Shown here: one piece after another, positions 34,141-50,351 of the stretch
Numbering within the stretch: position 1 is the first letter of the stretch
How the letters are laid out: each line of letters begins with the position of its first letter
NCBI GenBank assembly: GCA_002753225.1
Contig: PDZS01000013.1
Coordinates: 20,167-84,166 of the forward strand
DNA length: 64,000 bases
Direction of reading: 5' to 3'
DNA from: Deltaproteobacteria bacterium YD0425bin51
GTDB lineage: Bacteria > Desulfobacterota > Desulfobacteria > Desulfobacterales > YD0425bin51
The notes under the pieces: generated by a model
The model's input: the letters and a program-made list of their open reading frames with translations, nothing else
Databases searched by the model: none
Told to the model about the DNA's origin: nothing
Made by a program: the position numbers and the translations under genes

Positions 34141-35781
34141 TTGAAATTCCTATTTATATGTATAACTATTCTGTATATTGGAATATTAGAAGCTTACTGC
34201 TCAGATATTGAACTTCCGCCTGTAATTGAAGGAAATAAGCAATTATCATCAATTCAGAAAATATTTATTAAGAAATTTCTATTAGTTGGGAATACAGTAT
34301 TTTCAGATAAACAACTAAGGCCTTTAATCCAATCATATGAAAACCGATTTATATCTCACGAAGAACTTCAAGATGTAAAAAATATTTTAACTCAATATTA
34401 TATTCAGCAAGGTTATATAAATTCAGGAGTGGTGATACCTGATCAAGAAGTAAAATATGATAAAATCAGACTAGAAATTACCGAAGGCAAAATAGATAGG
34501 ATTTATGTGAATGGGTTAAAATTACTACGTCCTAATTATGTTATAAATCGGATAAAATTATCTACAGATGATGGTAAATTACCATTAAATGTAAATAGAT
34601 TACAAGAACGTTTGCAGATAATAAAACAGGATCCTTTAATAAAGAATGTTAATGCAGAACTTAAGCGGGGTCTAAATCGTGGATTTGCTGATCTTTATGT
34701 CCAAGTAATTGAAAATAAACCTTATTCACTTCAAGTAAAATTCAATAATTACACTTCACCAGGAGTTTCTGCTAATACTGGAGTATTAGAAGCTAAACTT
34801 TTAAATGTTTCAGGATGGGGAGATTCTATTTCAACAGAACTTACAAAGACCAAAGGACTCGAGAGTTATTCCGGCGAATATATATTACCTTTTAACAGAT
34901 GGGGAACAACTTTACTTTTAGGTTTTGATAAAACTGTATCAGACATAGTTTCTAAGCCATTTAACGAGTTAGACATATATGGAATTTCTAGAAATTATTA
35001 TGGTTATGTAAGGCATCCTTTTTACAAAACTTTATCTACTGAATTTGCAATGGGTTTAAAGCTTGAAAAAAGATATAGTAAAACACATTTATTCAATAAA
35101 CCCTTTTCATTTTCTCCTGGTGTTGAAGATGGCGAAAGTAAAGTATCTGTTTTGAGATTCTGGCAAGAATGGGTTGATAGGAGCATGTCACAGGTAATTG
35201 CATTTCGTTCAACTTTTTCCTTTGGCTTGAATATATTAGACTCAACTCATCATATTAATGAGGCTTTAAATGGACCAGATGGGGAATTTATTGCTTGGTT
35301 ATCACAGTTTCAATGGGTCAGAATGCTTCCTAAATTAAACAGCCAGCTTCTGCTTAGTTTAAGCGGTCAGCTGTCCATTGATAAACTTTTACCTTTGGAA
35401 AAGTTTGCTATTGGAGGTTCCTCTACAGTTCGAGGATATCGTGAAAACTTTGTAACAGCAGACAATGGTTTCCTTGGTTCTCTGGAATGGCGAGTGCCAA
35501 TAACCCAGTGGATTATTCCTAATATAAGAAAAAATTCTGATAAATTTGATATCAAACTTGCAACATTCTTTGATTATGGGACAACTTGGAATACCATGAC
35601 AACTATTCGTCCAATTCCTGATAGCCTATGCAGCATAGGATTGGGACTTAGGTGCTTATTATTTAAAAAAGTTGAAGCAGATATAAATTGGGGTTATGGC
35701 TTAAGAGATATTGAAATTCCAACAGACAGTGATCTTCAGGATAAAGGGATACATTTTCAGATTAAAACAATGTTATTCTAA
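34141..35781 (+). CDS. ShlB/FhaC/HecB-family (TpsB, Omp85 superfamily) outer-membrane transporter
   Basis: Signal peptide, POTRA region (FLLVGNTVFSDKQLRPLI...YYIQQGYINSGVVIPDQEV..IRLEITEGKIDRIYVNG) and a C-terminal beta-barrel (..FAIGGSSTVRGY..). TTG start with RBS GGAGG. Confidence 0.8.
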   Translation: MKFLFICITILYIGILEAYCSDIELPPVIEGNKQLSSIQKIFIKKFLLVGNTVFSDKQLRPLIQSYENRFISHEELQDVKNILTQYYIQQGYINSGVVIPDQEVKYDKIRLEITEGKIDRIYVNGLKLLRPNYVINRIKLSTDDGKLPLNVNRLQERLQIIKQDPLIKNVNAELKRGLNRGFADLYVQVIENKPYSLQVKFNNYTSPGVSANTGVLEAKLLNVSGWGDSISTELTKTKGLESYSGEYILPFNRWGTTLLLGFDKTVSDIVSKPFNELDIYGISRNYYGYVRHPFYKTLSTEFAMGLKLEKRYSKTHLFNKPFSFSPGVEDGESKVSVLRFWQEWVDRSMSQVIAFRSTFSFGLNILDSTHHINEALNGPDGEFIAWLSQFQWVRMLPKLNSQLLLSLSGQLSIDKLLPLEKFAIGGSSTVRGYRENFVTADNGFLGSLEWRVPITQWIIPNIRKNSDKFDIKLATFFDYGTTWNTMTTIRPIPDSLCSIGLGLRCLLFKKVEADINWGYGLRDIEIPTDSDLQDKGIHFQIKTMLF

Positions 35782-35822: not shown

Positions 35823-35826
35823 CAAA

Positions 35827-35880: not shown

Positions 35881-35911
35881 GGGAAATGGTATGAATATTG
35901 CTATGTGTCTC

Positions 35912-35954
35912 ATAATAGTTTGGTTGTTATTGAGGATAACAACCAAACTATTAT
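35912..35954. other. Perfect 19-bp hairpin 3, 31 nt upstream of the mini-protein start codon
   Basis: ATAATAGTTTGGTTGTTAT (35912-35930), loop TGAGG, ATAACAACCAAACTATTAT (35936-35954). Confidence 0.85.
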
Positions 35955-35985
35955 ATCAACCATAAAAATATAGGAGAAAAGATAA

Positions 35986-36207
35986 ATGAAAGTAAAATCA
36001 AATGTAAAATCAGGTTATGATATTCCAGCAGGTCCAATTTGGAACAATGGCGATGCACAGGGTAAATGTCCTAAAACATGCGCTCCATTTGGCGGATGGA
36101 ATGGAAATTGGTTGACCACTATTCCTGGTAGGATGTCTGTATGCGGATGCAATGTTAATCCAAATATTGTAGGATGTAAACCTGGTCCAGGGGCAATTTT
36201 AAGTTAA
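35986..36207 (+). CDS. 73-aa Cys-containing mini-protein with MVL (mannan-binding lectin)-like domain and short N-terminal MKVK..K.G motif
   Basis: RBS AGGAG at 35972. AGPIWNNGDAQGKCPKTCAPFGGWNGNWLTTIPGRMSVCGC resembles the bacterial 'mannan-binding protein/MVL' repeat (GPIW...KCP...W.GQW.T..PG.MSVC), recalled from memory. There is no Sec-type hydrophobic signal. Five Cys. Confidence 0.6.
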   Translation: MKVKSNVKSGYDIPAGPIWNNGDAQGKCPKTCAPFGGWNGNWLTTIPGRMSVCGCNVNPNIVGCKPGPGAILS

Positions 36208-36221
36208 GAATACTATTTACC

Positions 36222-36250
36222 ATGTGCCAACTTTAGAAAAGTTGGCACAT
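36222..36250. other. Perfect 13-bp hairpin just after the mini-protein gene
   Basis: ATGTGCCAACTTT - AGA - AAAGTTGGCACAT. No T-run follows, so it is not a canonical intrinsic terminator. It may be an mRNA processing or stabilising hairpin. Confidence 0.75.
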
Positions 36251-36265
36251 AAGGAAAAAATAATT

Positions 36266-36481
36266 ATGATAAAAACAAAAACTAGCTTAAAAGCAGGCAA
36301 AATTACTATATATGGCTCATCTTCATGTGGATGGTGCCAAAAACAGAAGAATTATTTAAACTCTAAAGGAATAGCCTATACTTTTATTGATTGCTCTACT
36401 AATTCATGCCCTGACTTCGTAAAAGCATTTCCAACTATAGATAATAACGGAATAATATCAGAAGGTTATCAAGAATTATAA
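36266..36481 (+). CDS. Glutaredoxin/NrdH-like thiol-disulfide oxidoreductase with 11-aa N-terminal extension
   Basis: I prefer ATG 36266 (MIKTKTSLKAGKITIYGSSSCGWCQKQKNYLNSKGIAYTFIDC...), because the track's upstream start lies within the hairpin. It has a CGWC active site in a Grx-like beta-alpha-beta context. The stop abuts the ABC gene start (TAAATG). Confidence 0.7.
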   Translation: MIKTKTSLKAGKITIYGSSSCGWCQKQKNYLNSKGIAYTFIDCSTNSCPDFVKAFPTIDNNGIISEGYQEL

Positions 36482-38629
36482 ATGCAGTTTTCTGAACTCT
36501 ATAATTATTCATGGCCTCCTTCAATGCTTGCTGAATCTATTGAAATTTTAGCTAAAAAGGCAAAATATATCTCAAAGCCTGTAGATATACCTCTGCAGTT
36601 TAAAAATATAGAAGCTACAGATAAGGAGACTTTAACTATTTGGATAAGAAAAATAGCTGAACATGTTGGAATAGAAGCTGAACCTGTTGAATTTTTATAT
36701 TCTGATATAGATGATATGTTGTATAAAGCAGCTCCAGCTTTGATTTATTTACCATTACAAGATGAGCAAAGATTTCTAATCTTTTTTAAAGGGGATAAAA
36801 ATAGACTTAAAATTATAACTCCTGAAAATAAAGTAAAGAGTATACCTACAGATTTTGTTTGCGATATTATAACTTATGAAATTGAAGCCCCTTTTCTTGA
36901 ATCTGCAGATAACTTACTCTTAAATGTCGGTGTACCTAAAGAAAGGTTGCATAAAAGCAAAAAATCAATTTTCAAAGAACAACTTGGTTCAAAAAGAATT
37001 CATAACTGCTGGATTTTGAGGCTTTCACCTGGTGGCAGCTTATGGACACAGATAGTTGGAGCAAAAATACCCAAAAATATATTTACAATTATAATGATGA
37101 ATATTATTGGACAAATATTGATGCTGCTTAGCTGGTTTATTATAGGTAAAGGAGCATTCAAAGGCAACTTTGATCCTATGTGGCTTTATGCTTTGACTTT
37201 GCTAATGTTTACTGCTATACCTTTTCAGCTTATTACTACTTGGGCAGGCTCTTTAATGTCAATTAGCGCTGGAGAAATTTTTAAAAAGCGCCTCCTTTTT
37301 GGTATTCTTAAATTAGAACCTGAAGAAATAAAAAATCAAGGTGCAGGACAATTTTTAGGAAGAGTTATGGAGTCTGAATCAGTAGAATCTTTGGCTCTAA
37401 CCGGAGGAATTGTTGCTATAATTTCTATTATTGACTTATTTACAGCAGTAACTGTAATCAAAATGGGTATTGGAGGATGGCTACATACATTTATACTTTT
37501 TGGATGGATAATAATTTCAATATTTTTATATATTCAATATTTTAGAAAAATAAATGATTGGATGAACCTATATCAAGAAATGACAAATGATATGGTAGAG
37601 CGTATGGTAGGACACCGAACAAGGCTTGCTCAGGAAGATGAAAAAGATTGGCACAATGAAGAAGATAAAATTTTATCTAAATATTTCCAATTATCAGAAG
37701 ATTTAGATAAAGTGAATATAAAAATTCATGGAATTGTTTCTCATGGATGGGGAATTGTAGGTTTTTTAGGAATAGCTTATTTAATAATTATTATTCCTCC
37801 TGCATCAAAGTCTTTAATGGCTGTAAGTATAGGAGGAATAATGCTTGCTTCGCAAGCTTTGACTAGTATAGTTGGAACAATGTCGAGTATTGTTAACATT
37901 ACAATTGCATGGAAACAGGTAGGGCCACTTTTTACTGCTGCAAATCGTAAAAAATATAAACCGTCTTCCTTTGTTATTTCAAACAATGATTTAAAAAAGA
38001 AAATAGATGAAGATGATGAGCCTGTTTTAGCTGCTTATGATATTAATTTCAATTATGGAAACTATGGTCGTTCAATAATAACTAATTGTAGTTTAAAGAT
38101 ATCAAAAGGAGATAGACTTTTACTTGAAGGACCATCAGGAGGAGGAAAGTCAACTTTATCTGCTCTTATTGCTGGTTTGAAGGAGCCTGTATCTGGTATT
38201 TTGCTTATGGGAGGTTTGGACAAACAGACAATGGGGATAGATGAATGGAGGAAAAGAATAGTTATTGCTCCTCAATTTCATGAAAATCATGTTTTAATGG
38301 AAACATTTGCATTTAATTTACTTATGGGAAGACGCTGGCCCCCCTCAAATGAGGATTTAGAGCATGCAGAAGAAATATGTCAGGAGCTAGGACTTGGAGA
38401 ACTTTTGCATAGAATGCCTGCTGGAATTCAACAGATGGTTGGAGAAAGTGGCTGGAGATTATCTCATGGTGAAAGGAGCCGTCTTTATATTGCTAGAGCG
38501 CTTCTTCAGGAAGCAGAGATAATTATTTTAGATGAGAGTTTTGCAGCTCTTGATCCTGAAAATCTTTATAGAGCAATGAATTGCGTTTTAAAGCGTGCTT
38601 CTACTCTACTAGTTATTGCGCATCCATAA
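36482..38629 (+). CDS. ABC exporter (N-terminal ~190-aa cytoplasmic domain - 6-TM permease - ATPase), no peptidase active site seen
   Basis: Walker A GPSGGGKST, signature LSHGERSRL, Walker B IIILDESFAALD. In the N-terminal domain (SWPPSMLAESIEILAKKAKYI...) I find no Q/C/H C39 triad. The architecture resembles the non-peptidase partner of two-subunit bacteriocin (NHLP-type) exporters. Confidence 0.85.
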   Translation: MQFSELYNYSWPPSMLAESIEILAKKAKYISKPVDIPLQFKNIEATDKETLTIWIRKIAEHVGIEAEPVEFLYSDIDDMLYKAAPALIYLPLQDEQRFLIFFKGDKNRLKIITPENKVKSIPTDFVCDIITYEIEAPFLESADNLLLNVGVPKERLHKSKKSIFKEQLGSKRIHNCWILRLSPGGSLWTQIVGAKIPKNIFTIIMMNIIGQILMLLSWFIIGKGAFKGNFDPMWLYALTLLMFTAIPFQLITTWAGSLMSISAGEIFKKRLLFGILKLEPEEIKNQGAGQFLGRVMESESVESLALTGGIVAIISIIDLFTAVTVIKMGIGGWLHTFILFGWIIISIFLYIQYFRKINDWMNLYQEMTNDMVERMVGHRTRLAQEDEKDWHNEEDKILSKYFQLSEDLDKVNIKIHGIVSHGWGIVGFLGIAYLIIIIPPASKSLMAVSIGGIMLASQALTSIVGTMSSIVNITIAWKQVGPLFTAANRKKYKPSSFVISNNDLKKKIDEDDEPVLAAYDINFNYGNYGRSIITNCSLKISKGDRLLLEGPSGGGKSTLSALIAGLKEPVSGILLMGGLDKQTMGIDEWRKRIVIAPQFHENHVLMETFAFNLLMGRRWPPSNEDLEHAEEICQELGLGELLHRMPAGIQQMVGESGWRLSHGERSRLYIARALLQEAEIIILDESFAALDPENLYRAMNCVLKRASTLLVIAHP

Positions 38630-38897: not shown

Positions 38898-39851
38898 ATG
38901 GCAGATGAATATGTAAAACGTATAGTACCATCATTTAAAAAAATAGAAGATTTTTGGCATAAGTTCGTAAGTACAGGTTTGGTCCCGACCATTATATTTT
39001 TAGTTATTTTTTTAATTTTATTTACAATTTTAGTAAAAAGTATTTTTTATACTATAGCTCCTGGACAAGCAGCTGTGAGATGGAGTCGTTTTCATGGAGG
39101 TACTCAAATAGATTACGTTTATCCAGAAGGTTGGAATTACATAACACCCTGGGATAAAATGTATATATATAACATAAGAATACAAGAAATTTCCCATGAG
39201 ATGAGCGTTTTGAGCAAAAACGGACTTAAAGTGGATCTTAATTTATCCATTAGATTTGCACCTAAATATAAATTGTTAGGACTTTTGCACCAGAAAATTG
39301 GGCCAGATTATGCAAATACAGTAATTATACCTGAAGTTGAAGCAGTATTACGTGAAATTATTGGCACTATGGAGGCAGAAAATATTTATACAACAGGAAG
39401 AGCATTAATAGTTGAAGCAATAAATAAAGCTATTGAGCAGGTTGCTCAGCGGTATATAGATATAGATAAGGTTTTAATAAAAAGTATTCAGCTTCCAGAT
39501 AGCGTTGAACAGGCAATTCGTTATAAAATAGAGCAGAAACATTTAATTGAAGCCACTGAATTTATTGTTGAGAAGGAAAAAAAGGAAGCAGATCGTAAAC
39601 GTGTCGAAGCAGCAGGTCTTAGAGATTACAATAAAATAGTTGAAGATTCGCTTTCAAAAAAAATAATGGACTGGAAAGCAATTCAAGCAACTATGGAGCT
39701 AGCTAAATCTAATAATTCAAAGGTTATTTTAGTAGGGGCAGGAGAAAGAGGGCTCCCAATTTTTGGTGGAATTCAAGTAGATGACTTGACTAAAGAAAGC
39801 TCAAAAGATAATGATAAAGATAATAATAAAAAAGAGATTATTAAAAAGTAG
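38898..39851 (+). CDS. SPFH/Band-7 (prohibitin/HflC-like) membrane protein
   Basis: N-terminal TM helix, then IAPGQAAVRWSRFHGGT...VLSKNGLKVDLNLSIRF...IIPEVEAVLREIIG and a coiled-coil C-terminus. Confidence 0.8.
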   Translation: MADEYVKRIVPSFKKIEDFWHKFVSTGLVPTIIFLVIFLILFTILVKSIFYTIAPGQAAVRWSRFHGGTQIDYVYPEGWNYITPWDKMYIYNIRIQEISHEMSVLSKNGLKVDLNLSIRFAPKYKLLGLLHQKIGPDYANTVIIPEVEAVLREIIGTMEAENIYTTGRALIVEAINKAIEQVAQRYIDIDKVLIKSIQLPDSVEQAIRYKIEQKHLIEATEFIVEKEKKEADRKRVEAAGLRDYNKIVEDSLSKKIMDWKAIQATMELAKSNNSKVILVGAGERGLPIFGGIQVDDLTKESSKDNDKDNNKKEIIKK

Positions 39852-42555
39852 TCTTATATTTTTGATAATTCTTACACTTATAGTTGGCTGTAGATCTAAA
39901 ATAGATGTATCTGAAAAAAGAGCAAAAAGAGCTTTTGAATCAAAAGGGGATATAGTTGTTGCTATAGTTGATTCATCAGTTACACCAACTATGTTTGTTG
40001 AAGGGGTTAAACTAGCTATTGAAGACATAAATTCTTCTGGAGGAGTTTTAGGAAGAAAAATCAAACCCTTGTTCTATGATGACGAGGGAAAATTTGAAAC
40101 AGGACAAAAGATTGCGCATAAGATAGCTGGAAAAGATGATGTTATTGCAGTTATTGGGCACCGTTTTTCTGAGGTTGCAGTCCCTGTATCAATTACATAT
40201 GAAAAGAATGGAATTCTGTTCATTTCGACTGGAGCAACAGATCAGGATTTGATAAGAGACACTGCTGTTTTTACAGTAAGGAATATATCTTCAGATGAAG
40301 ATTTTGGCCGTGAATCAGCAGCTTTTGCCAAACGTAAAAATTTTAAGAAGATTGCAATTTTGTTTGATAGCGAGTCTTCAGGGAAAAGGATTGCAGATCT
40401 TTTTCATGAGCAGGCAGATCGTATTGGAATTAAAATTGTTGCTGAAAAAGCCTATTCTAAATATCAGGATGACTTTAGGTATTTGATTTCAGATTTAACA
40501 AAACAAGCAAAATTTGATGCGATATTTTTAGGAGGAATGCTTCCATCTGCGGCTATTATGATTAAACAGCTCAGAAACTTAGGAGTTGATGTTCCGATTA
40601 TAGGAACAGAGAGGATGGATGCTCCAGAACTTTTAAATATTGCAGGCAAAGCTGCAAATGATACAATTGTTACAACTGTATTTGATCCTAGACTTTCTGA
40701 AAAAAATACTATCTATTTTACAAGCACATTCAAAGAAAAAAATGGTGTTGAACCTGATGCATGGGCAGCACAAGGTTATGATGCAATATCTCTTTTGGCG
40801 TTTGCCATTGACAAAAGCGGATCAACTGTTCCTATAGCATTAAGCTCTACATTAAAGCTTTTAAAAAAATGGAAAAGTGTTTCAGGTTCTTATTCTTTTA
40901 ATCAAAATGGCTCAATTAGCGGTAAAAATATTTTTTTTAAAATCATAAAAAATAGTAATTTTGCAGTATTAGAGCGAGAATTAAGGCAAAATATTAATCC
41001 TTTTGAAGTTATAAAAGATATAACTATAAGGATACCGATTGAAGGTGCAGTTGAAACAGTAGACCCAACTTTTGTACAAGATATGATTTCTATTGACTTG
41101 TCAGAACAATTATTTTTAGGCCTTACTGATTTTAATCCCAAAAACTATGAAGCTTATCCTGAACTTGCTACAAAATGGACAGTAAGCGAAGATGGAAGAA
41201 CATATCGTTTTGAAATGCGTAAGGATGTTTTATGGACTGATGGTACTCCTGTAACTGCCCATGATATAGTGTGGGCAATACAAAGAAATATAAAACCTGA
41301 GACTAATTGTCCTTCTGTATCAATGTTATATATTTTAAAAAATGCCAAAGCAATAAATAAAAAAGAAATGACTGAAATTTCTCAACTTGGTGTAAAAGCT
41401 GATGGAGATTATGCAGTGGAATTCAGCCTTGAAAATCCAGCTTCTTATTTTCCAGCTATGGCTGGATTATGGGTATATAGACCTTTACCAAGAAAAATAA
41501 TTGAAAAATATCAACAAGATTGGACTGATCCTAAAAATATAGTAACAAATGGTTCTTATCGCTTAGCATCACTGGAAAAGGAGATGCTGGTAATTTTAAG
41601 GAAAAATGAATTATATTATGATGCAAATCAAGTTAAGATTCCTGAAGTTCGCTATTATGTTATACCAGACGGTAGCATTGGTTTGTCAATGTATAAAAAT
41701 GACCAATTAGATATAATGGGTGGAAACTATTTGACTATTCCTCCTTCTGAAATTTCCAATCTAAATGCAAATCCTGCATTAGCAAGTGAGCTTTATCAAG
41801 TACCTCAGTTCTGCACTTATGCTTATGGCTTTAACACAAAACTTCCGCCCATGGATAATCCGTTAGTAAGAAAAGCAATATCTGCTGCAATTGATCGATC
41901 TCTGCTGTGCGAAGTTTTATATAGAGGGAATCAGGAGCCTGCTACAACTTTTACTCGTCCTCCTATTTTTGGATCAGTTGATCCAAGAGATGGTATAGGA
42001 ATACACTTTGATTTAAAACTTGCTAAAAAATGGCTTACTGAAGCTGGTTTTCCAGATGGAAAAGGATTTCCAGAAATAAAATTACTTTATAACAGTTCTC
42101 CAAAACATGAAATGGTAGCAAAAGCTATCCAAACATTATTAGATTATTCCTTAAATATTAAAGTCAATATCGTTCCTAAAGAATGGTCAGAATATACAGA
42201 AGGTATGAAACAACCAAACACTAATTATCATATGTTTAGATTTGGATGGTGTAACGATTATCCAGATGCTAATAATTCTTTAAATGAACTTTTTAACCCT
42301 AAAAGTTCAAATAATAATATTGGATGGGAGAATAAAGAATTTACAGATCTCATGGAAAGGGCTCAAAAAGAGACTATTCCAGAAGACAGGAAAAAAACAT
42401 ACAAGAGGGCAGAACAGATTCTTTGTGAAGAAGTCTGCGCAATGATGCCCTTATTTTTTGAAGTTCATAATTTTTTGGTTAAATCAAGAGTCAAAGGCTG
42501 GTATAACTTGGCTTTAGGAGGGCAACATATTCGTGACTGGTATTTTGAAGAATAA
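39811..42555 (+). CDS. Lipoprotein fusing a type-1 periplasmic binding domain (LivJ/ANF-receptor-like) to a family-5 (OppA/DppA-like) solute-binding domain
   Basis: Lipobox LIVGC. The N-terminal half (VVAIVDSS...INSSGGVLGRKIKPLFYDDEG...AVIGHRFSEVA) is LIVBP-like. The C-terminal half (..DLSEQLFLGLTDFNPKN..PELATKWTVSEDGRTYRFEMRKDVLWTDGTPVTAHD..) is SBP_bac_5-like. Confidence 0.8.
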   Translation: MIKIIIKKRLLKSSLIFLIILTLIVGCRSKIDVSEKRAKRAFESKGDIVVAIVDSSVTPTMFVEGVKLAIEDINSSGGVLGRKIKPLFYDDEGKFETGQKIAHKIAGKDDVIAVIGHRFSEVAVPVSITYEKNGILFISTGATDQDLIRDTAVFTVRNISSDEDFGRESAAFAKRKNFKKIAILFDSESSGKRIADLFHEQADRIGIKIVAEKAYSKYQDDFRYLISDLTKQAKFDAIFLGGMLPSAAIMIKQLRNLGVDVPIIGTERMDAPELLNIAGKAANDTIVTTVFDPRLSEKNTIYFTSTFKEKNGVEPDAWAAQGYDAISLLAFAIDKSGSTVPIALSSTLKLLKKWKSVSGSYSFNQNGSISGKNIFFKIIKNSNFAVLERELRQNINPFEVIKDITIRIPIEGAVETVDPTFVQDMISIDLSEQLFLGLTDFNPKNYEAYPELATKWTVSEDGRTYRFEMRKDVLWTDGTPVTAHDIVWAIQRNIKPETNCPSVSMLYILKNAKAINKKEMTEISQLGVKADGDYAVEFSLENPASYFPAMAGLWVYRPLPRKIIEKYQQDWTDPKNIVTNGSYRLASLEKEMLVILRKNELYYDANQVKIPEVRYYVIPDGSIGLSMYKNDQLDIMGGNYLTIPPSEISNLNANPALASELYQVPQFCTYAYGFNTKLPPMDNPLVRKAISAAIDRSLLCEVLYRGNQEPATTFTRPPIFGSVDPRDGIGIHFDLKLAKKWLTEAGFPDGKGFPEIKLLYNSSPKHEMVAKAIQTLLDYSLNIKVNIVPKEWSEYTEGMKQPNTNYHMFRFGWCNDYPDANNSLNELFNPKSSNNNIGWENKEFTDLMERAQKETIPEDRKKTYKRAEQILCEEVCAMMPLFFEVHNFLVKSRVKGWYNLALGGQHIRDWYFEE

Positions 42556-44761
42556 AAAAATTTATGTAACTATTGCGTTAATTATTTTAGCATTATTAGG
42601 TTTAGTAATATATTTTTCATTTATTATAAAAAAAGATTATTACATTGCTGTTGCAGGTCCTATGAGTGGACAGCGTAAATATGATGGTGAAGCAATGTTA
42701 AAAGGGATTAATCTGTGTCTTGATGAGATAAACAAAAAGGGTGGAATTAATGGAAGAAAGATACTTGCTCGTATTTTTGATGATAAAGGACAAACAAGAA
42801 TAGCAATGAATATTGCTTCTCAAATTTCAGAAGATAAAGATATCTTACTAACTCTTGGGCACTTTGACAGCTCAACTTCATATTCTGCTGGAAGTATTTA
42901 TCGTAAAACAGGTGTACCTGCAATCACTGCATCTGCAACTGCTGTTGAAGTAACTCGCGAAAATGATTTTTATTTCAGGGTCATCACAAACAATGCTTTT
43001 GAAGGAAGCTTTATTGCTAATTACTTGAAAACATTAGGTAAACAATCAGCAACCATCATTTATAATAAAGATACCTATGGGACATCTCTTGTGGAAAGTT
43101 TTGAAAAAACGGCAAAAACAATTGGTATTGCTGTCAAAAAAAAATGGGGTTTTGACTCAGAAAGTGAAACAATAAATGAGGATATGTCTAAAATTATCAC
43201 TGAACTTAGAGCAATAAGTGATCCTGGTATGCTATTTTTGGCAGTTCATGGGAATGAAGCCCCTAAAATTATCAAATCATTAAAATTTTCAGGTGCTGAT
43301 TTTTCAATTTTTGGACCTGATAGTTTTGCAACTGTTTCATTTATTAGTGGATTCAAAGAATTTCCCGAGGAACAGACAAAACCAGGATACTATACAGATG
43401 GAATTTATTGTGCTTCTCCATTTATGGCAGAAATTGCAAATGAAAAAGCACAGAAATTTAGAAAATTATATATGCATAAATACTTAGAGGAGCCATTATG
43501 GACATCAGCCTGTTATTATGATGCAGCTCTTGTTGCAGTTGAAGCAATTAAATCTTCAGACATTGGAAATAGTGATCAAATTCGAAAATCGAGAAGAGAA
43601 ATCAGAAGTTCTCTTGCAAATATGTATAGGCAAGAAGATGCTTTAATAGGAGTCACTGGGCCAATATACTTTGATAAAAATGGAGATGTAAACCGTCCAA
43701 TGGCAGTAGGAAAATACAAAAAACAAATATTTATGCCAGCATACTTACAGTATCAATTAATTCCAGATCCTCCAGATAGTGAGGCAACCTTAAAAAAAGT
43801 TCTGAAAGGTGATATTTTTGTTATTGAAGGCAAAAATATGCATAAATACAAAGTAGTCTATACAGGTATTGATGTTAACGAGATTTTTAACCTGGATATT
43901 AAAAAATCTACTTACAGCATGGATTTTTATATTTGGTTCAGATTTGAAGGAGAATTGGATGATAAAGATATCAATTTTGTAAATGCGGCAAGTCCTATTG
44001 ATATAGGTAAACCTATTTTTGAAGAACAGAAAGATGGCATTACTTTGCGTGCATATCGTGTTAAAGGGAATTTTAAAGGTAATTTTGACTTTAGCTCATA
44101 TCCTTTTGACAAGCATAATTTAGAGATAAAATTTCATCATAAAAAAGATACTCGTGAACAGTTAATATATGTTGTTGATATTTTGGCACTTCCTGATTCA
44201 GTTTTAAAAGCAAAACATCATGAGATAGATTTTAAAAGCTCTATTGAGTGGAAAATTATAGATAAATTTTATTATCAAGATATTAAAACAGATAATTCAA
44301 CTCGTGGTAAGTTAGATTCTTTAAATGAACAGAATAAATATTCTTATTCCATGTTTAATCTTTCAATTTTAATAAAAAAGACTGGAATAGGTGAATTCTT
44401 AAGAAATATAATCCCTATGATTGTATTAATTTTGATTTTATATATTATCTATTTTATACCTAATGAAAAATGGTGGGTGCACTTAGTTATAATACTTACA
44501 GTACTTATCACAAACATATTCTACCATGTAAAACTATTAAATTATTTACCCATTAATTACACGAGTTGCATGGAATATTTATTTTTTTCTTTATATTTAC
44601 TTATAATTATGAAATTGCTGTTACTCTCAATTATATTTATTCATTTCAAAAAAAATAATATAAAAAGATTAAACTTAATTCAAAATGTAGGAAAAATATT
44701 GTTTCTGCCAGTTGCTTTTGGAATGATTTTAATAACCCTGTATTTAACAGGTCGCTTTTAG
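42533..44761 (+). CDS. Type-1 periplasmic binding domain fused to a pentameric ligand-gated ion channel (Cys-loop-superfamily-like) module
   Basis: N-terminal TM/signal anchor, then a LIVBP-like domain (IAVAGPMSGQRKYDGEAMLKGINLCLDEINKKGGINGRKILARIFDD..). A beta-sandwich ECD-like region follows (VVYTGIDVNEIFNLDIKKSTYSMDFYIWFRF ... FDFSSYPFDKHNLEIKF). It ends in four TM helices with pLGIC-like landmarks (NIIPMIVLILILYIIYFIP; LPINYTSCMEYLFF). Confidence 0.7.
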   Translation: MTGILKNKKIYVTIALIILALLGLVIYFSFIIKKDYYIAVAGPMSGQRKYDGEAMLKGINLCLDEINKKGGINGRKILARIFDDKGQTRIAMNIASQISEDKDILLTLGHFDSSTSYSAGSIYRKTGVPAITASATAVEVTRENDFYFRVITNNAFEGSFIANYLKTLGKQSATIIYNKDTYGTSLVESFEKTAKTIGIAVKKKWGFDSESETINEDMSKIITELRAISDPGMLFLAVHGNEAPKIIKSLKFSGADFSIFGPDSFATVSFISGFKEFPEEQTKPGYYTDGIYCASPFMAEIANEKAQKFRKLYMHKYLEEPLWTSACYYDAALVAVEAIKSSDIGNSDQIRKSRREIRSSLANMYRQEDALIGVTGPIYFDKNGDVNRPMAVGKYKKQIFMPAYLQYQLIPDPPDSEATLKKVLKGDIFVIEGKNMHKYKVVYTGIDVNEIFNLDIKKSTYSMDFYIWFRFEGELDDKDINFVNAASPIDIGKPIFEEQKDGITLRAYRVKGNFKGNFDFSSYPFDKHNLEIKFHHKKDTREQLIYVVDILALPDSVLKAKHHEIDFKSSIEWKIIDKFYYQDIKTDNSTRGKLDSLNEQNKYSYSMFNLSILIKKTGIGEFLRNIIPMIVLILILYIIYFIPNEKWWVHLVIILTVLITNIFYHVKLLNYLPINYTSCMEYLFFSLYLLIIMKLLLLSIIFIHFKKNNIKRLNLIQNVGKILFLPVAFGMILITLYLTGRF

Positions 44762-44805: not shown

Positions 44806-45327
44806 ATGGAACAAGAAAAAACAAACGAGGAAGTAAAAGTTGAAACCCAGGAACTAAAAGAAGTGTCTCAAGAACAAATTGATAAACTTATCAGAAATAA
44901 TGTTTTGGTTTCAATGGGATTTGGGCTAATTCCCATCCCACTTGTTGATTTTGCTGCTATTACAGGTGTTCAGCTTAACATGATAAGAATACTTGCAAAA
45001 ATGTACGAAGTTCCATTTTCTAAAGACAAAGGTAAACATATTATCGCATCACTTATTGGTGGTACTATTCCTGCATCTTTTGGTGGAATTTTAACGAGTT
45101 TAGTCAAAGTTGTACCAATTATTGGACAAACAACAGGCGCATTGGTTATGCCAGTACTTGCAGGTGGAACAACTTATGCGATAGGTAAAGTTATGGTACA
45201 ACATTTTGCATCTGGTGGGACATTCCTAAATTTTAATCCTGAACAAGTAAAAGAATATTATGCTGATATGCTTTCAAAAGGTAAAGAAGTTGCTAGTAAA
45301 ATCAAATCTGGTGCTATGACACAATAA
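44806..45327 (+). CDS. DUF697 (YcjF-like) membrane-associated protein
   Basis: GLIPIPLVDFAAITGVQLNMIRILAKMYEVPFSK...GTTYAIGKVMVQHF is the typical DUF697 pattern. Confidence 0.65.
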   Translation: MEQEKTNEEVKVETQELKEVSQEQIDKLIRNNVLVSMGFGLIPIPLVDFAAITGVQLNMIRILAKMYEVPFSKDKGKHIIASLIGGTIPASFGGILTSLVKVVPIIGQTTGALVMPVLAGGTTYAIGKVMVQHFASGGTFLNFNPEQVKEYYADMLSKGKEVASKIKSGAMTQ

Positions 45328-45337
45328 GGAGAATCCT

Positions 45338-46834
45338 ATGAAAAAATTTGCATTGAAACTATTTTGTATTTTTATAATTATTACTTTTATGGGTTGTGCG
45401 ACCGGCGTTGATCCTAAAAACGACAAACAGCTCAATGCTTTGTTTCAGGCTCTTGTCAAAAATAAGAAAGAGCTTGCCAAAAAGAAGGCAGAACAAGACA
45501 AAATGTTAGAAAAAGGGTTAACATTTGAAAAGAAAGACTCAGGAATTGAATTTAGCGCAGATCTATATAATGCACCAATCCCTGATATCTTTAAGAAAAT
45601 AATGGAAGCATCTCATGAATCATATATTTTAGAAGATGATGCTGTCCTTACAGGAAAGGTTACTACACGTTTTCAAAAGCTTAGCTTTATTAATGCTTTA
45701 AATATGATAATCTCACCTATTGATTTAGTGGCTGTAAAGGAAAAAGATTTTGTTAAGGTTAGCCTTAAATATAAAGGTGAAGTTGCTGGAGCAGCTGCAA
45801 CTGCAGCAGGAGCTGCAGGTCCAGCAGGAGCTATGCCAGTTGGTCCTCCAGGTGTTTATGCAGAATTGGCTTTTAATAATTTAGATGTTGCTTCTGTTCA
45901 AACATTGCTTGAAACACTTTATCCTGCAACTTCTCCTACACCAAGACCTATTGAATATGGGGTCATACCTGCATCAAATACAGTTTATATTCATGGCGAT
46001 AAAAGCAATGTTGTAAGAACCATCCAAATATTAAGACAAGCAGATCGCAAGGTTAAACATGTTGTTATTGAAGTTTTGGTAGTTGAATATAAAACAGGGG
46101 ATTTAATGGATCTGCAGAGTAAAATCACAAATATGAAGACTGGTTATTTAAAAGATATTAATCTTGGTTTTAACGCAATAGGTTTTACACAACCAGGAAG
46201 GAATATTGGAGAAGATAAAATCAGAAACTTCACTGAGTTTACAGCGCTTGTTAATTTTTTAATTGAAGATAACAAAGCAAGACTTATTTCCAGACCTTAT
46301 ATAGCTACAAGAAGCGGTAAAAAAGCTCAAATTGAAATTGCTACAGAAGGTTATCTTGAGATCGCAACAGCTCAGGGTGGTAGTCAAGCTCAATCTGTTA
46401 AATCTGGTGTTATTTTGAATATTTTACCTATAGTGTTGGATACAGGCAAGTTAAACATGGAAATCCAAGTTGAAGATTCTCAATTTTCAAAGATACCTGA
46501 AAATACGAAAATGCAGCTTTCAGTAAACAAAAACTCAGCTCAAACATTTATGCAGGTTGATGATGGTCAGACAATAATCATAGGTGGTTTGGTATTGAAT
46601 CGTGGAGAATGGGGAAATTCTGGATTTCCATTCTTGAGAAAGATACCAATTATAAATCTTCTTGCTGCAAACCAAAAAAGTTCAATTACAGAAAAGGAAG
46701 TTGCAATATATATAACTCCTCATGTTTGGGAGCCTGACATTGTATCTCCTCTTATAGATCCTGATGCTCTTACAGATAAAGGTTCTAAGAAAGGTATCAG
46801 TGATATTGGCTCTTTTATTAATAAATTAAAATAG
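45338..46834 (+). CDS. Secretin-family outer-membrane channel lipoprotein
   Basis: Lipobox FMGC. There is an Ala/Gly/Pro-rich linker (GAAATAAGAAGPAGAMPVGPPG). The C-terminal secretin domain reads ARLISRPYIATRSGKKAQIEI...GVILNILPIV...DDGQTIIIGGL...GFPFLRKIPIINLL...EVAIYITPHV. Confidence 0.8.
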   Translation: MKKFALKLFCIFIIITFMGCATGVDPKNDKQLNALFQALVKNKKELAKKKAEQDKMLEKGLTFEKKDSGIEFSADLYNAPIPDIFKKIMEASHESYILEDDAVLTGKVTTRFQKLSFINALNMIISPIDLVAVKEKDFVKVSLKYKGEVAGAAATAAGAAGPAGAMPVGPPGVYAELAFNNLDVASVQTLLETLYPATSPTPRPIEYGVIPASNTVYIHGDKSNVVRTIQILRQADRKVKHVVIEVLVVEYKTGDLMDLQSKITNMKTGYLKDINLGFNAIGFTQPGRNIGEDKIRNFTEFTALVNFLIEDNKARLISRPYIATRSGKKAQIEIATEGYLEIATAQGGSQAQSVKSGVILNILPIVLDTGKLNMEIQVEDSQFSKIPENTKMQLSVNKNSAQTFMQVDDGQTIIIGGLVLNRGEWGNSGFPFLRKIPIINLLAANQKSSITEKEVAIYITPHVWEPDIVSPLIDPDALTDKGSKKGISDIGSFINKLK

Positions 46835-47393: not shown

Positions 47394-47490
47394 TTAAAAT
47401 ATGGCCGACAAATTGCATATTTTATTTTAGAGTCTGAGCTCAAAGTTTAGACAATCTTTTTAACATAAAACAAAAAGGAGAATAAATACA

Positions 47491-47550: not shown

Positions 47551-47570
47551 AAAAACAAAAGAAGTAGCTT

Positions 47571-47619
47571 TACCCGTGATATTTAATAACTCTGCAAAAT
47601 ATCACGGGTAATTTTTTTT
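47571..47619 (+). terminator. Rho-independent terminator/attenuator between micro-ORF and C39-ABC gene
   Basis: TACCCGTGATAT (47571-47582) pairs with ATATCACGGGTA (47599-47610), followed by ATTTTTTTT (47611-47619). The ABC start codon is at 47628. Confidence 0.65.
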
Positions 47620-47627
47620 AAACTGTT

Positions 47628-50351
47628 ATGTTATTTGATACTATTCCAAAAAGAAAATTTTTAGTACCTGAAGTTATTCAGACATCTGCAATGGATTGTG
47701 GTCCTGCCACATTAAAAGCTATGCTTGAGGGATTTGACATTTCTGCAAGTTATGGACGCCTTAGAGAAGCTTGCCAAACAGATGTTGATGGAACCAGCAT
47801 TGATAGTATTGAAGATGTTGCTGTTCAATTAGGACTTGAAGCCCAGCAGACCATGCTCCCTCTTGATAATTTGCTTTTGCCGGTAAGTGCAGCATTACCA
47901 GCTATTGTAGTAACTCGTCTTCCAAATGGATTTACACATTTTGTTATTGTCTGGTCTGTTCACGGTTCTTTTGTTCAAATCATGGATCCTGGCACAGGAA
48001 GGCGTTGGTTGACTAAAAAGAACTTTTTAAAAGATGTTTATATTCACAGACAGACTGTTTCTGTTGAAGATTGGCATAATTGGGCAAAGTCAGATGGATT
48101 TTTAAAGCCTCTATGTGTAAGAATGGAAAATCTGAAAATAGGAGGCTTCATTATTGATGAACTGATTGAAACAGCAAAAAATGGAGAAAGATGGCAAACA
48201 CTTGCAGCATTAGATGCTTCAGTAAGAATGGTTGATTCAATCGTAAATTCAGGTGGATTTAGGAAAGGCTCTGAAGCCTCAAAAGCTTTGCAGCAAATAT
48301 TTACAAATGAAATAACTATGCAGCATGATCAGGAAAGCATGGTTCCTATAAATTACTGGTCCATAGAACCATCACCAAATGAAAATGAAAGCGATCAGGT
48401 AATTTTAAAAGGTGCTGTAACTATAACCGTTAGCGGCAAAAGAGAAGTTAAAGATTCAAAAGAAATATCTAATGAGGAACAGATAAAACCCTTATCTCCT
48501 GAATTAGTTGCAGCATTAGAAGAGGAGTCTGTTAAACCTGAAAAGGAACTTATAAAAGCTTTTTTAGAGGATGGATGGCTTGTCATTGTCATGCTTATTT
48601 CTGGGCTTGCTTTAGCTACATTTGCAGTAACTGTTGAAGCTATTTTATTTAGAGGTTTATTAGAAATTACATCAAACTTCCAATTAATTGGACAAAAAGT
48701 TTCTGCAATGGGATTACTTATAGCTTTTTTATGTGCTGTTGTTGCTCTTTCTTTGCCTATGGAATCAATAAAATACCGCATTGGAAGGCGGATTGAAACC
48801 CGCCTTAGGATAGCTTTTTTAGAAAAGATCCCCCGCCTTGGAGATAAGTATTTTCATAGCCGTCTTACATCAGATATGACTCATAGGGCCTATGAACTAC
48901 GTCAATTAAGAATGTACCCCAATTTAGCAGTTATGTTTATACGAGTATGTTTTGAAATTTTAATTACAACTATTTGTATTATTTGGATCACACCATCAAG
49001 CGCTCATATTGCTATTATTGCAACTCTTGTTGTAATTGGTGTTTCTTTGATGGCACAGCCTCTACTGAACGAGCAAAGCCTTCGTCTTCAAACATTAATT
49101 GGAGCAATAAGCAGATTTTATCTAGACTCATTACTAGGAATAGTGCCAATTAGAACTCACAGGGCAGAATTATCTGTTAGAAGGGAACATGAAGGTTTAA
49201 TGGTAGAATGGGCAAGAGCAGGTATTTCTCTATACAAAGCTGATTTATTAATTATTGGAATAGAAGCTTTAGTGGGTGCTTTTTTTACAGTATGGATTCT
49301 ATACCATTTTGTGTCAAATTACAGTGATCCAAAAGGCATATTATTATTAATGTACTGGACAATGAAATTACCTCAACTTGGAAAGGTTTTGGCCTCTCTT
49401 GCCCAGCAATATCCAATGATGCGCAATATGCTACTTAGACTTTTAGAGCCTTTAACTTCAAGTGAAGAAAGTGCAATGTATAAAGAAGATAAAGATGACG
49501 AACCTTATGATTACACTCAAATTATTTCAGAAGAAGGTATATCTCTATATCTTCAAGATGTTAATGTGCAAGCCGGCGGACAGACTATTTTAAAAGAAAT
49601 AAATTTAACAATTAATTCAAATGAGCATGTAGCTATTGTTGGTCCATCTGGTGCTGGAAAATCAAGCTTTGTTGGATTATTTCTTGGTTGGCATAGACCT
49701 AATGAAGGTAAAATATTTATTGATGGAAAACGGTTGAATGGTTCCATGTTAAATAAAATTCGTAGTCAAACATCGTGGGTAGATCCAGAAGTTCAACTTT
49801 GGAATAAGACTCTTATAGAAAATCTACGTTATGGCTCTCAAGATATTGAAACATCAAATTTAAGTCAAGTTATAGAGCTTGCTGATTTATTAAATATGTT
49901 GGAAAAATTCCCAAATGGACTTCAAACTGTTCTAGGAGAAGGTGGGGGATTAGTTTCAGGAGGAGAAGGTCAAAGAGTTAGGCTTGGAAGAGCAATGCTT
50001 AGAGATAAAATAAGACTTGTCATAATGGATGAACCATTTCGTGGTCTTGATCGGTCAACTCGAAGAGAGCTTTTAAAAAAAGCTAGAGCCTTCTGGAAAA
50101 AATCAACATTGATTTTTATTTCCCACGATGTAAGTGAAACTCTTTTATTTGACAGAGTATTAGTAATAGAAAATGGACAAATAGTTGAAGATAATACGCC
50201 AAAAATTTTATCAGAAAAAAAAGATTCTCGTTATAGTATGCTTTTAAAAGCTGATGAAGCTGTTAGAAATACTTTATGGGCCAGCGCTGAATGGAGAAGA
50301 TTATGGCTCAAAGATGGAAAACTCGATGAAAATGAAAATAATAATGATTAA
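47628..50351 (+). CDS. Peptidase-C39-containing ABC exporter (PCAT), 907 aa
   Basis: C39 domain with an intact triad context (VIQTSAMDCGPATLKAML ... FTHFVIVW ... IMDPGTG). Then a ~170-aa extra region, a 6-TM permease and an ATPase (GPSGAGKSS, VSGGEGQRVRL, LVIMDEPFRGLD). Confidence 0.9.
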   Translation: MLFDTIPKRKFLVPEVIQTSAMDCGPATLKAMLEGFDISASYGRLREACQTDVDGTSIDSIEDVAVQLGLEAQQTMLPLDNLLLPVSAALPAIVVTRLPNGFTHFVIVWSVHGSFVQIMDPGTGRRWLTKKNFLKDVYIHRQTVSVEDWHNWAKSDGFLKPLCVRMENLKIGGFIIDELIETAKNGERWQTLAALDASVRMVDSIVNSGGFRKGSEASKALQQIFTNEITMQHDQESMVPINYWSIEPSPNENESDQVILKGAVTITVSGKREVKDSKEISNEEQIKPLSPELVAALEEESVKPEKELIKAFLEDGWLVIVMLISGLALATFAVTVEAILFRGLLEITSNFQLIGQKVSAMGLLIAFLCAVVALSLPMESIKYRIGRRIETRLRIAFLEKIPRLGDKYFHSRLTSDMTHRAYELRQLRMYPNLAVMFIRVCFEILITTICIIWITPSSAHIAIIATLVVIGVSLMAQPLLNEQSLRLQTLIGAISRFYLDSLLGIVPIRTHRAELSVRREHEGLMVEWARAGISLYKADLLIIGIEALVGAFFTVWILYHFVSNYSDPKGILLLMYWTMKLPQLGKVLASLAQQYPMMRNMLLRLLEPLTSSEESAMYKEDKDDEPYDYTQIISEEGISLYLQDVNVQAGGQTILKEINLTINSNEHVAIVGPSGAGKSSFVGLFLGWHRPNEGKIFIDGKRLNGSMLNKIRSQTSWVDPEVQLWNKTLIENLRYGSQDIETSNLSQVIELADLLNMLEKFPNGLQTVLGEGGGLVSGGEGQRVRLGRAMLRDKIRLVIMDEPFRGLDRSTRRELLKKARAFWKKSTLIFISHDVSETLLFDRVLVIENGQIVEDNTPKILSEKKDSRYSMLLKADEAVRNTLWASAEWRRLWLKDGKLDENENNND

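Follow-up and report, generated by a model that had tools for sequence, protein, structure and literature searches.

A short lysine-rich N-terminal leader as a candidate export tag for a family of peptidase-containing ABC transporters

Three small precursor genes beside an ABC export locus

The 64,000-nucleotide stretch of the Deltaproteobacteria bacterium YD0425bin51 genome analyzed here (contig PDZS01000013.1; hereafter the window) encodes three small proteins that begin with a similar lysine-rich segment, termed here the leader, and that adjoin genes of an ATP-binding cassette (ABC) export machinery (Table 1). Two of the open reading frames (ORFs), for a lectin and a glutaredoxin-like protein, sit directly upstream of a peptidase-less ABC gene (hereafter ABC2); the third, a 19-residue ORF that has a GGAG ribosome-binding site and, behind it, a hairpin of 15 bp with a U-run, sits directly upstream of the gene for an ABC exporter with an N-terminal C39 peptidase, or peptidase-containing ABC transporter (PCAT). 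An earlier note on this DNA had reported a common N-terminal motif in these ORFs, and all three are present, at 35986, 36266 and 47491, as the sole N-termini of this kind in the window: a relaxed form of the motif, M-x(0,1)-[KR]-x-[KRQ]-[TS]-x-x-[KRNQC]-[AS]-G, matches 3 of the 3,038 start-to-stop ORFs in six frames, compared with 0.03 on average and never more than 1 per window in first-order Markov simulations of the same DNA. The motif is therefore not frequent at random N-termini of the window, which the note had named as an outcome that would count against it. Inspection of the three leaders (MKVKSNVKSG, MIKTKTSLKAG and MKVKTKVKAG) revealed neither a hydrophobic core nor a twin-arginine motif, and a Sec, Tat or lipoprotein signal was rejected as the identity of the motif. 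A likeness to the MKVR.. start of ribosomal protein L36 was also rejected, its sole basis being one weak Pfam match (E 0.8).

The product of the first ORF is an MVL-type (mannan-binding) lectin domain, as judged by a Pfam match over residues 21-55 (PF12151; E 1.9e-14, 53.8 bits, cut-off 25) and by its match to a single repeat of 1ZHQ, a Microcystis lectin of solved structure (E 1.2e-15), and sugar binding is predicted from this assignment. The previous description of a 73-residue protein with an MVL domain, five cysteines and no Sec signal thus holds. Most homologues of this lectin carry a Sec signal peptide, ending ...AFA/YDIP, ...LLA/YDIP or ...ALA/FDV (a slash marks the junction here and below). 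Three leader-type homologues instead begin MKVKSNVKSG/YDIP, MKVKTEAKAG/YDLP and MKNRTGTKAG/YDIP, and the leader is retained in the orthologues P0012, P0018 and P0020. In these proteins the short basic segment stops at the residue where signal peptidase would cut their relatives. Because the leader ends at the Sec junction of an otherwise secreted lectin family, it holds exactly the place of a cleaved signal peptide.

The second ORF encodes 71 residues, rather than the 72 given before, and its product has a glutaredoxin/thioredoxin fold: the Pfam Glutaredoxin model matches from residue 13 with 31.7 bits (cut-off 22.9), a CxxC motif (CGWC, residues 21-24) stands at the start of helix 1, and the protein matches the glutaredoxins 5CAX and 3NZN in the PDB. 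It scores under the cut-off of every specific NCBIfam glutaredoxin subfamily and is accordingly assigned to none. As had been noticed from the sequence, the motif forms an extension ahead of this fold, of 11-12 residues by the Pfam boundary. A word-indexed search for homologues returned the protein itself and P0026 only, which begins MKIQTSLKAG/ELVVYG; an orthologue in locus L001 reads ..KVRSRVCAG/NVTVYG and has CGWT, with a single active-site cysteine. Retention of the motif in orthologues, a check that the earlier note had called for, is thus observed for both the lectin and the glutaredoxin-like protein. In the window and L001 lineages alike the glutaredoxin-like gene lies directly upstream of ABC2, its stop codon abutting the ABC start codon.

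The gene set of the window recurs, in other assemblies, at the locus of the leader-type lectin P0018 (L001-L005): a 910-residue binding-protein fusion, a Band_7 protein, a 719-residue ABC protein with the glutaredoxin-like gene just upstream, a DUF697 protein, a secretin, a 926-residue PCAT, a 184-residue adaptor, a histidine kinase and a sigma-54 activator. Approximately nine genes of L001-L005 begin with the motif, namely those for the lectin, the glutaredoxin-like protein, a 60-residue CGC protein, a 125-residue protein and several short peptides. The core of one short peptide in L001, SIDQMIQDAM, resembles the core GFNSMIQGM of the 19-residue window precursor.

The window PCAT combines an active C39 domain, an insert of ~170 residues, a transmembrane domain and a nucleotide-binding domain, the latter two matching PCAT1 (4RY2). 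Gln18, Cys24, His104 and Asp120 are invariant among 24 homologues from several phyla, and mean column identity across the C39 domain is 69%. The insert, retained in 23 of the genome loci listed and in 73 of 80 metagenome loci, is thereby a marker of this PCAT clade. In ABC2, the N-terminal 190 residues align to the C39 profile (hhalign probability 92%, E 5e-7), although the catalytic Cys, His and Asp are absent; this gene adjoins the PCAT gene in 18 of the genome loci listed and in 32 metagenome loci. The third component is a HlyD-type adaptor of 178 residues, which matches the N- and C-terminal ends of HlyD proteins of ~390 residues. Its AF2 model (pLDDT 90.5) is structurally closest to BesA, followed by ZneB, MacA and EmrA. 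PCAT-linked relatives of the adaptor elsewhere are mostly full-length HlyD proteins of ~390 residues, short forms occurring in Chloroflexota and the window lineage, and a word-indexed search with the window protein found only itself. One relative, P0028 (L128:7465-8034; 39% identical), is encoded beside a small ABC ATPase, an NMT1-type binding protein and an RND (ACR_tran) pump, with no PCAT, and the hairpin-less adaptor family therefore serves more than one type of transporter; other loci with adaptor relatives are mostly contigs of 1-5 kb with little context.

Spread of the leader and its linkage to one transporter family

We scanned 185,579 genomes, one per species (596 Gb), with the pattern ATG AAR GTN ARR ACN N6 AAR GCN GG, which encodes MKV[K/R]TxxKAG. 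The scan returned at least 176 matches in at least 120 loci; by our own estimate, chance would supply ~17 in the whole collection. Among the matches listed, the carriers are mainly Acidobacteriota, joined by Chloroflexota, Planctomycetota, Myxococcota, Desulfobacterota, Methylococcales, other Gamma- and Betaproteobacteria, Gemmatimonadota and Nitrospinota, and at least two, Methylomicrobium lacus 22M6SE5-12 and Methyloglobulus morosus KoM1, are cultured. Most of the ORFs are very short (123 of 174 have at most 20 residues, typically 15-20, often in tandem), with cores such as SALWGS, GFSWSN, GGRIWNG and xGxDPNG, and 165 of the 176 matches listed are preceded by a Shine-Dalgarno-like motif. No Pfam or NCBIfam model matched the leader carriers. 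Searches of the literature, some with the motif spelled out as a string, turned up no account of the leader or of the system, an absence that is no proof of unpublished status.

The earlier note had cautioned that lysine-rich N-termini could arise by chance in an AT-rich genome, and a related explanation would be a signal in the nucleotides themselves, for instance an A-rich enhancer of translation initiation. The window is indeed 31-35% GC, and 7 of its 56 ORFs of at least 100 residues start lysine-rich (at least three Lys among residues 2-10); the motif occurs in none of these seven. Coincidence is at odds with the excess of window matches over simulation, with the association of the motif with one transporter family and with its persistence in GC-rich DNA, the carrier loci among the matches listed having a median GC of 0.58 (range 0.37-0.74). 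Every synonymous codon for Val3, Thr5, Ala9 and Gly10 is in use among these matches, which indicates selection on the peptide and, together with the high-GC loci, rules out AT bias and nucleotide-level explanations. The motif moreover recurs inside multi-core precursors, where no effect on initiation is possible. We regard both coincidence and an initiation enhancer as effectively refuted.

Positions left free by the search pattern are also constrained among the matches listed, position 6 being mostly Asn, Lys, Ser or Arg and position 7 Val, Thr, Ile, Leu or Ala. In a less biased set of leaders, anchored on the C39 domain, the consensus is M-K-[V/T/I]-K-T-[N/R/K]-[V/I/L]-K-A-G. Counting back from the predicted cleavage site, position -4 of this set is Val, Ile or Leu in 46 of 46 leaders, and position -2 is Ala in 43 and Ser in 3 and never Gly, the pattern having permitted Ala and Ser only; Gly at -1 is present in all leaders collected, as the search patterns required. 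Position -7 is Lys or Arg, and with ten residues the minimal form has no position -12, so that the leader does not correspond to a canonical amphipathic-helix leader. The general consensus is M-[K/R]-[V/I/T]-[K/R]-[T/S]-x-[V/I/L]-K-[A/S]-G. The earlier description of a basic, lysine-rich motif ending in a pair of small residues stands, with the pair being [A/S]-G at residues 9-10, whereas a Gly-Gly pair is not required; a further Gly that would create one is present in 40 of the 176 leaders listed. The tag is also found at the end of longer leaders and repeated inside multi-core precursors. In L135, which holds the closest relative of the window PCAT, the element closes a longer leader, ..GL[R/G][V/T]TTx[V/I]RAG/, which suggests that the unit recognized is the stretch of nine residues ahead of the cut, with Met plus nine residues as its minimal form.

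Linkage between leader and transporter was observed from both ends. Parts specific to this transporter family occur in 35 of the 120 leader-anchored chunks listed (each at most 8 kb): the C39 domain in 29, at 57-73% identity to that of the window, the family-specific insert in 23 and the N-terminal domain of ABC2 in 18, with the adaptor also found and the usual gene order being leader genes, HlyD, PCAT, ABC2. In the reciprocal test, metagenome loci were fetched by C39 alignment alone (at least 600 stretches matched, 589 were confirmed and 80 loci were kept), and 25 of the 80 contain N-terminal leader ORFs, 48-49 in all, as against 0-4 loci in Markov controls; further loci carry the leader element as internal repeats. 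A search of long leader-less PCAT loci for alternative N-terminal motifs gave nothing convincing, except for the longer leaders of L135 (..TTx[VI]RAG). Enrichment near PCAT or secretin genes, which the earlier note had suggested testing, is therefore borne out for the PCAT, in both directions and across phyla; linkage to a secretin is confined to this Desulfobacterales-type lineage. Recurrent neighbors across the 120 loci listed are ABC proteins, HlyD, TPR regulators or kinases, and sigma-54 activators; beside the short-peptide arrays of other phyla, the TPR proteins have a fused DNA-binding or Ser/Thr-kinase domain.

Several kinds of carrier recur. Acidobacteriota have tandem arrays (L013, L021, L025, L031, L076, L085, L099; for example L031:3556-4130) of 3-5 near-identical 16-residue ORFs, MKVKTNTKAG followed by SALWGS, NVLWGS or NAMWGS, spaced ~130 bp apart. 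Multi-core precursors (L018, L014, L053, L180, L188, L195, L204/L205; for example L180:12700-13950 on the minus strand) repeat the element up to ~8 times per ORF in units of the form ..NHNQT..RGLKVKTxVKAG, in which short variable cores are followed by a conserved NHNQT, NHNET or NHNR segment (...NHNQTVSRGLKVKTNAKAG...); if C39 cuts at every element, each product would keep the follower and the next leader, and another protease may be needed. A cargo family of 56-60 residues, common to Chloroflexota and Desulfobacterota, has the leader followed by GLGD..V..L....GLD.....Y..LTGK.CGC..RQ..LN; it matches no Pfam or NCBIfam model and has no copy in the window. Methanotroph and betaproteobacterial carriers (L078, L064, L023, L048, L118) have cores of the type ..TQNRCE..R, or Arg/Gly/His-rich cores ending GPNHT or APNHG.

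Comparison with known exporters and a proposed mechanism

The window leaders share several features with canonical double-glycine leaders and their PCATs (class II bacteriocins, microcins, ComC/ComAB, LahT and PCAT1-CtA), which likewise lack a hydrophobic core, close with two small residues, have a hydrophobic -4, are encoded beside an ABC exporter with an N-terminal C39 domain (Cys, His, Asp), and carry cargo ranging from short peptides to small proteins. The leader described here differs in having 10 residues instead of 15-30, in being lysine-rich and alternating, without hydrophobic knobs at -7 and -12, in ending with Ala/Ser-Gly and not Gly-Gly, and in being near-invariant across phyla, canonical double-glycine leaders being diverse. 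For the C39 peptidase LahT150, the substrate rules reported are hydrophobic residues at -4, -7 and -12 and small residues at -2/-1, with a minimal substrate of 13 residues (PMC6363468). The hydrophobic -4 and, within what the search patterns allowed, the small -2/-1 of the leader fit these rules in part, and an exporter with the catalytic Cys and His expected of a PCAT is encoded nearby, at 47628. Since the leader is lysine-rich and alternating and lacks the hydrophobic residues at -7 and -12, its recognition by C39 probably involves a binding mode different from the canonical one; near-invariance of the leader is paralleled by the unusually conserved C39 domain (69%).

Two further export systems resemble the locus in layout. 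The NHLP/Nif11 exporters, which comprise an ABC1 subunit with a peptidase (TIGR03796) and an ABC2 subunit without one (TIGR03797), have the same three-part arrangement, and both models are among the best NCBIfam matches of the window proteins; the scores fall far short of the cut-offs (PCAT, 189.4 versus 853.3 bits; ABC2, 114.8 versus 709.4 bits), so that the window shares the layout without being a member. NHLP/Nif11 leaders are long domains unrelated to the window leader, and the ~170-residue PCAT insert and the degenerate C39-like domain of ABC2 also set the window system apart. The HlyD companion of NHLP export is described by model TIGR03794. HlyB-type ABC proteins of type I secretion systems have, as in ABC2, an N-terminal C39-like domain without catalytic residues, which in HlyB binds substrate; in the window, however, the dead domain has an active PCAT as its partner, the leader is N-terminal where HlyB substrates have a C-terminal signal, and the adaptor has no TolC-contacting hairpin. 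With its 178-residue adaptor the locus is thus not a classical type I system (ABC, HlyD and TolC). The adaptor model instead resembles BesA-type membrane-fusion proteins, which also have no α-helical hairpin; BesA chains head its structural matches. The pump that BesA serves is of the RND type and not an ABC exporter.

The suggestion of the earlier note, that the motif is an export or cleavage tag for the adjacent ABC machinery, agrees with the match to the Sec junction, the orthologues, the synteny and the two-way linkage to the PCAT, and we consider it likely that the motif is a minimal N-terminal leader serving as an export-and-cleavage tag read by the neighboring peptidase-ABC transporter. 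Observed directly are the conserved motif, where it stands with respect to Sec signal peptides, its linkage in genomes and catalytic residues that are intact; binding, the cleavage site, export, heterodimer formation, the role of the glutaredoxin-like protein and the secretin route are proposed on comparative grounds. The dedicated exporter would consist of the PCAT, its dead-C39 partner ABC2 and the hairpin-less adaptor. The active C39 domain of the PCAT would bind the leader, [K/R]-[V/I/T]-[K/R]-[T/S]-x-[V/I/L]-K-[A/S]-G, and cut after the Gly (residue 10, or residue 11 in the glutaredoxin-like protein), and the ABC pair, probably a heterodimer, would pump the cargo across the inner membrane. 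Predicted products are a 63-residue MVL-type lectin starting at Tyr11 (YDIPAGPIWNN), a 60-residue CGWC thioredoxin-fold protein and the nonapeptide GFNSMIQGM. For the outer membrane, an orphan secretin encoded right before the adaptor may provide the exit in the window lineage. The principle of an N-terminal leader cut by a C39-ABC exporter is known; this leader, its dedicated and unusually conserved pair of PCAT and pseudo-peptidase subunit, and cargo that extends from hexapeptides up to folded domains of lectin and glutaredoxin type appear to be undescribed.

Several observations weigh against this interpretation. The leader is shorter than the 13-residue minimum of a canonical C39 substrate and has no hydrophobic -7 or -12; the lectin and glutaredoxin-like genes adjoin the peptidase-less ABC gene, 11 kb away from the PCAT; and glutaredoxin-fold proteins are usually cytoplasmic. 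Roughly two thirds of the PCAT-anchored loci have no leader gene in the DNA covered, and 85 of the 120 leader-anchored chunks listed have no transporter, so that the linkage, though strong, is not obligatory, the short length of the loci being part of the reason. Finally, Pro follows the Gly in 22 of the 176 leaders listed (12%); a cysteine peptidase may accept Pro poorly at P1', and caution is warranted as to the exact cut site.

The prolines also speak for a reading in which the tag targets cargo but is kept, or is cut elsewhere than at Gly10, and in a variant of this idea the leader of the glutaredoxin-like protein would only dock a cytoplasmic maturation factor, without export, on the dead C39-like domain. 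C39-like domains of HlyB-type exporters do bind substrate without cutting it, the glutaredoxin-like gene abuts the peptidase-less ABC gene in both lineages, and its L001 version has CGWT, with one active-site Cys. A retained tag fits poorly, on the other hand, with a leader end that coincides with the signal-peptidase site of Sec-type lectin homologues and with active C39 residues that are invariant throughout the PCAT family, and a docking role with a glutaredoxin-like leader that is indistinguishable from cargo leaders; on balance we judge these variants unlikely.

Under the export-and-cleavage interpretation, the glutaredoxin-like protein is most simply read as a further cargo, a thiol-disulfide oxidoreductase that would be exported too and, outside the cytoplasm, assist the folding of Cys-rich proteins, the lectin among them; alternatively, it could be a docking or maturation factor that acts without being exported. 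Its closest analogue is PedC. PedC-type proteins are accessory proteins anchored in the membrane and are not known to have a cargo-type leader, whereas the window protein, with a 60-residue fold, is soluble and carries the leader of a cargo. In pediocin-like operons, PedC-type proteins have a thioredoxin-type CxxC, are encoded with a PCAT and Cys-containing cargo, and are thought to secure correct disulfides (PMC4919988).

A different role for the motif would be that of a leader of RiPPs (peptides that ribosomes make and that are then modified post-translationally), recruiting a peptide-modifying enzyme, with export and cleavage by the PCAT being secondary or another protease making the cut. 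Tandem ORFs of 16-19 residues with conserved Trp/Cys cores (SALWGS, GFSWSN, GGRIWNG) and the multi-core ...NHNQT..RGLKVKTxVKAG precursors have a RiPP-like appearance. Yet no RiPP enzyme (radical SAM, YcaO, LanM, P450 and others) is among the recurrent neighbor families of the 120 loci listed, where rare or distant enzymes are possible, or among the scanned ORFs of the window, and the same motif heads folded domains (the lectin, the glutaredoxin-like protein and the 125-residue protein) that are unlikely RiPP cores. We therefore hold a RiPP leader to be improbable; it would, in any case, be compatible with processing by the PCAT rather than exclude it.

Because the neighbors of the short-peptide arrays are regulators, kinases and sigma-54 activators and not modifying enzymes, we suggest that the array peptides are signaling peptides rather than RiPPs. 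Several Acidobacteriota arrays adjoin a divergent FHA-GAF-sigma-54 activator and have a sigma-54 element (consensus TGGCAC-N5-TTGCA) 75-98 nucleotides before the first gene. Taken together, an undescribed multi-phylum export system for unmodified signal peptides of 6-9 residues, extended in the window lineage to a two-step route through a secretin, is a tentative picture that we think doubtful as a whole. Were it true, the peptides would be cell-to-cell signals in Gram-negative and other non-Firmicute bacteria, the TPR regulators/kinases and sigma-54 enhancer-binding proteins beside the arrays would sense or control them, and the hairpin-less adaptor would pass folded mini-proteins, here the lectin and the thiol oxidoreductase, on to a dedicated secretin in place of TolC.

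PCAT leaders are a handle for finding bacteriocins, microcins and peptide pheromones, and current searches use the Gly-Gly leader of 15-30 residues. With most carriers being ORFs of at most 20 residues, precursors of the present kind are likely missed by gene callers and leader models alike, and the tag would offer a simple, specific route to the many exported peptides so far hidden in Acidobacteriota, Chloroflexota, Planctomycetota, Desulfobacterota, methanotrophs and others. The regulator neighbors make peptide signaling in the carrier phyla directly testable, one locus (L078, Table 1) being from a cultured strain. A ten-residue tag able to carry folded domains as well would lend itself to engineering as a compact signal for secretion, and for the window genome itself the prediction is that the lectin and the thiol oxidoreductase are exported independently of Sec.

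Neighboring genes, promoters and RNA structure

The secretin scores below all NCBIfam cut-offs (PilQ, 95.8 versus 284; GspD, 86 versus 351) despite its Secretin domain, and no partner genes of a type II secretion system or type IV pilus were present among the scanned large ORFs of the window, so it is assigned to neither class. Pfam results for the same ORFs include no OEP/TolC family member. The adjacency of secretin and adaptor genes is retained in L001, L004 and L005. A tblastn search of 200 other loci found no relatives of the lectin, the glutaredoxin-like protein, the secretin, the DUF697 protein or the TpsB-like protein, and the secretin exit is for this reason a hypothesis about this lineage, not a property of the family.

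Table 1. Positions of the features discussed (window coordinates unless a locus or chromosome is named)
Feature	Position	Strand	Remarks
Pre-lectin ORF	35986-36207	+	73 aa; begins MKVKSNVKSGYDIP / MKVKSNVKSGYDIPAGPIWNN; five Cys
Lectin leader MKVKSNVKSG (residues 1-10)	35986..36015	+	predicted cleavage after Gly10; identical in homologue P0012
Mature single-repeat MVL-type lectin (63 aa, five Cys) and stop	36016..36207	+	PF12151; 1ZHQ
Glutaredoxin-like precursor ORF	36266-36481	+	71 aa; begins MIKTKTSLKAGKITIYG / MIKTKTSLKAGKITIYGSSSCGWC, then ..CGWC
Glutaredoxin-like leader MIKTKTSLKAG (residues 1-11)	36266..36298	+	retained in P0026 and L001 orthologue
Glutaredoxin/thioredoxin-fold body and stop	36299..36481	+	PF00462; CGWC; gene order as in L001
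19-aa precursor ORF	47491-47550	+	MKVKTKVKAGGFNSMIQGM = leader MKVKTKVKAG and core GFNSMIQGM
PCAT	47628..50351	+	Peptidase_C39 (E 3e-20), ABC_membrane, ABC_tran
PCAT insert, ~170 aa (residues ~150-320)	48078-48590	+	between C39 and first membrane helix; no Pfam match
ABC2, exporter subunit with catalytically dead C39-like N-terminal domain	36482..38629	+	ABC_tran
Short HlyD-type adaptor, 178 aa	46857..47393	+	transmembrane helix and beta-barrel, no alpha-hairpin
Unclassified secretin, near-lipobox N-terminus	45338..46834	+	PF00263, E 7e-31; 22 nt upstream of adaptor gene
DUF697 membrane protein	44806..45327	+	PF05128; adjoins secretin or adaptor in L001, L131
Band_7/SPFH; Peripla_BP_6 + SBP_bac_5 fusion (914 aa); Peripla_BP_6 + multi-pass membrane region (742 aa)	38898..44761	+	Pfam
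ShlB/FhaC-type (TpsB-like) Omp85 protein	34141..35781	+	Pfam ShlB, POTRA_2, Omp85; 205 bp upstream of lectin gene
Sigma-54-type -24/-12 element TGGTATGAATATTGCT	35887..35902	+	pattern match; 99 nt before lectin start codon
Sigma-54-type -24/-12 element TGGCCGACAAATTGCA	47402..47417	+	pattern match; 89 nt before 19-aa ORF
Stem-loop between lectin and glutaredoxin-like genes	36220..36254	+	-19.1 kcal/mol, z -7.4; no U-run
Intrinsic-terminator-like hairpin, 15-bp arms and U8 run	47570..47620	+	between 19-aa precursor and PCAT genes
56-60-aa cargo copies	L001:13723-13905; L011:104-283 (-); L109:338-517; L111:5249-5416 (-); L126:1124-1300		
L078	Methylomicrobium lacus chromosome 632001-640000		peptide MKVKTKVKAGALTQNRCETFRR; peptide gene, then TPR protein, HlyD, PCAT

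Between the two halves of the transporter system lies a set of three genes (38898-44761), in which the 914-residue fusion joins Leu/Ile/Val-type and oligopeptide-type binding domains. The set is retained with the system only in related Desulfobacterota loci (L001-L003 and L137), and L137 has, of the accessory genes of the window, only the Band_7 and binding-protein genes. One possibility is that these binding proteins are peptide receptors for exported peptides. Membership of the TpsB-like protein in the system is uncertain: the window contains no gene for a TpsA-like exoprotein, and the TpsB-like gene is not retained in related loci. Directly downstream of ABC2 (38661-38894), a 77-residue ORF with two predicted membrane helices lies where, in bacteriocin loci, genes for immunity proteins are often found.

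Transcription of both precursor units appears to depend on sigma-54, given the -24/-12 elements found ahead of them by pattern matching. A third intergenic element of this type, at 30868-30883, precedes a DUF6160 gene (30961-31440) whose product has a Sec-type signal peptide; all three elements have the form TGG-N8-TTGCW and lie 89-99 nucleotides upstream of a start codon on the plus strand. No sigma-54 activator gene was seen in the window, and no sigma-54 element was found upstream of the leader genes of L001.

The stem-loop downstream of the lectin gene contains a GTG that would start a longer, 85-residue reading of the glutaredoxin-like ORF. Hairpins placed as this one and the terminator-like hairpin downstream of the 19-residue ORF would allow the precursors to be expressed above the level of the transporter genes. 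The region 5' of the lectin gene (35788-35971) holds three inverted repeats, of which the first has perfect arms of 12 nucleotides (35788-35822) and the second, with 26-nucleotide arms (35827-35880), ends just before the -24 element. The third, with 36-nucleotide arms (35895-35971), extends from the -12 element to the ribosome-binding site and could form a long hairpin in the 5' untranslated region.

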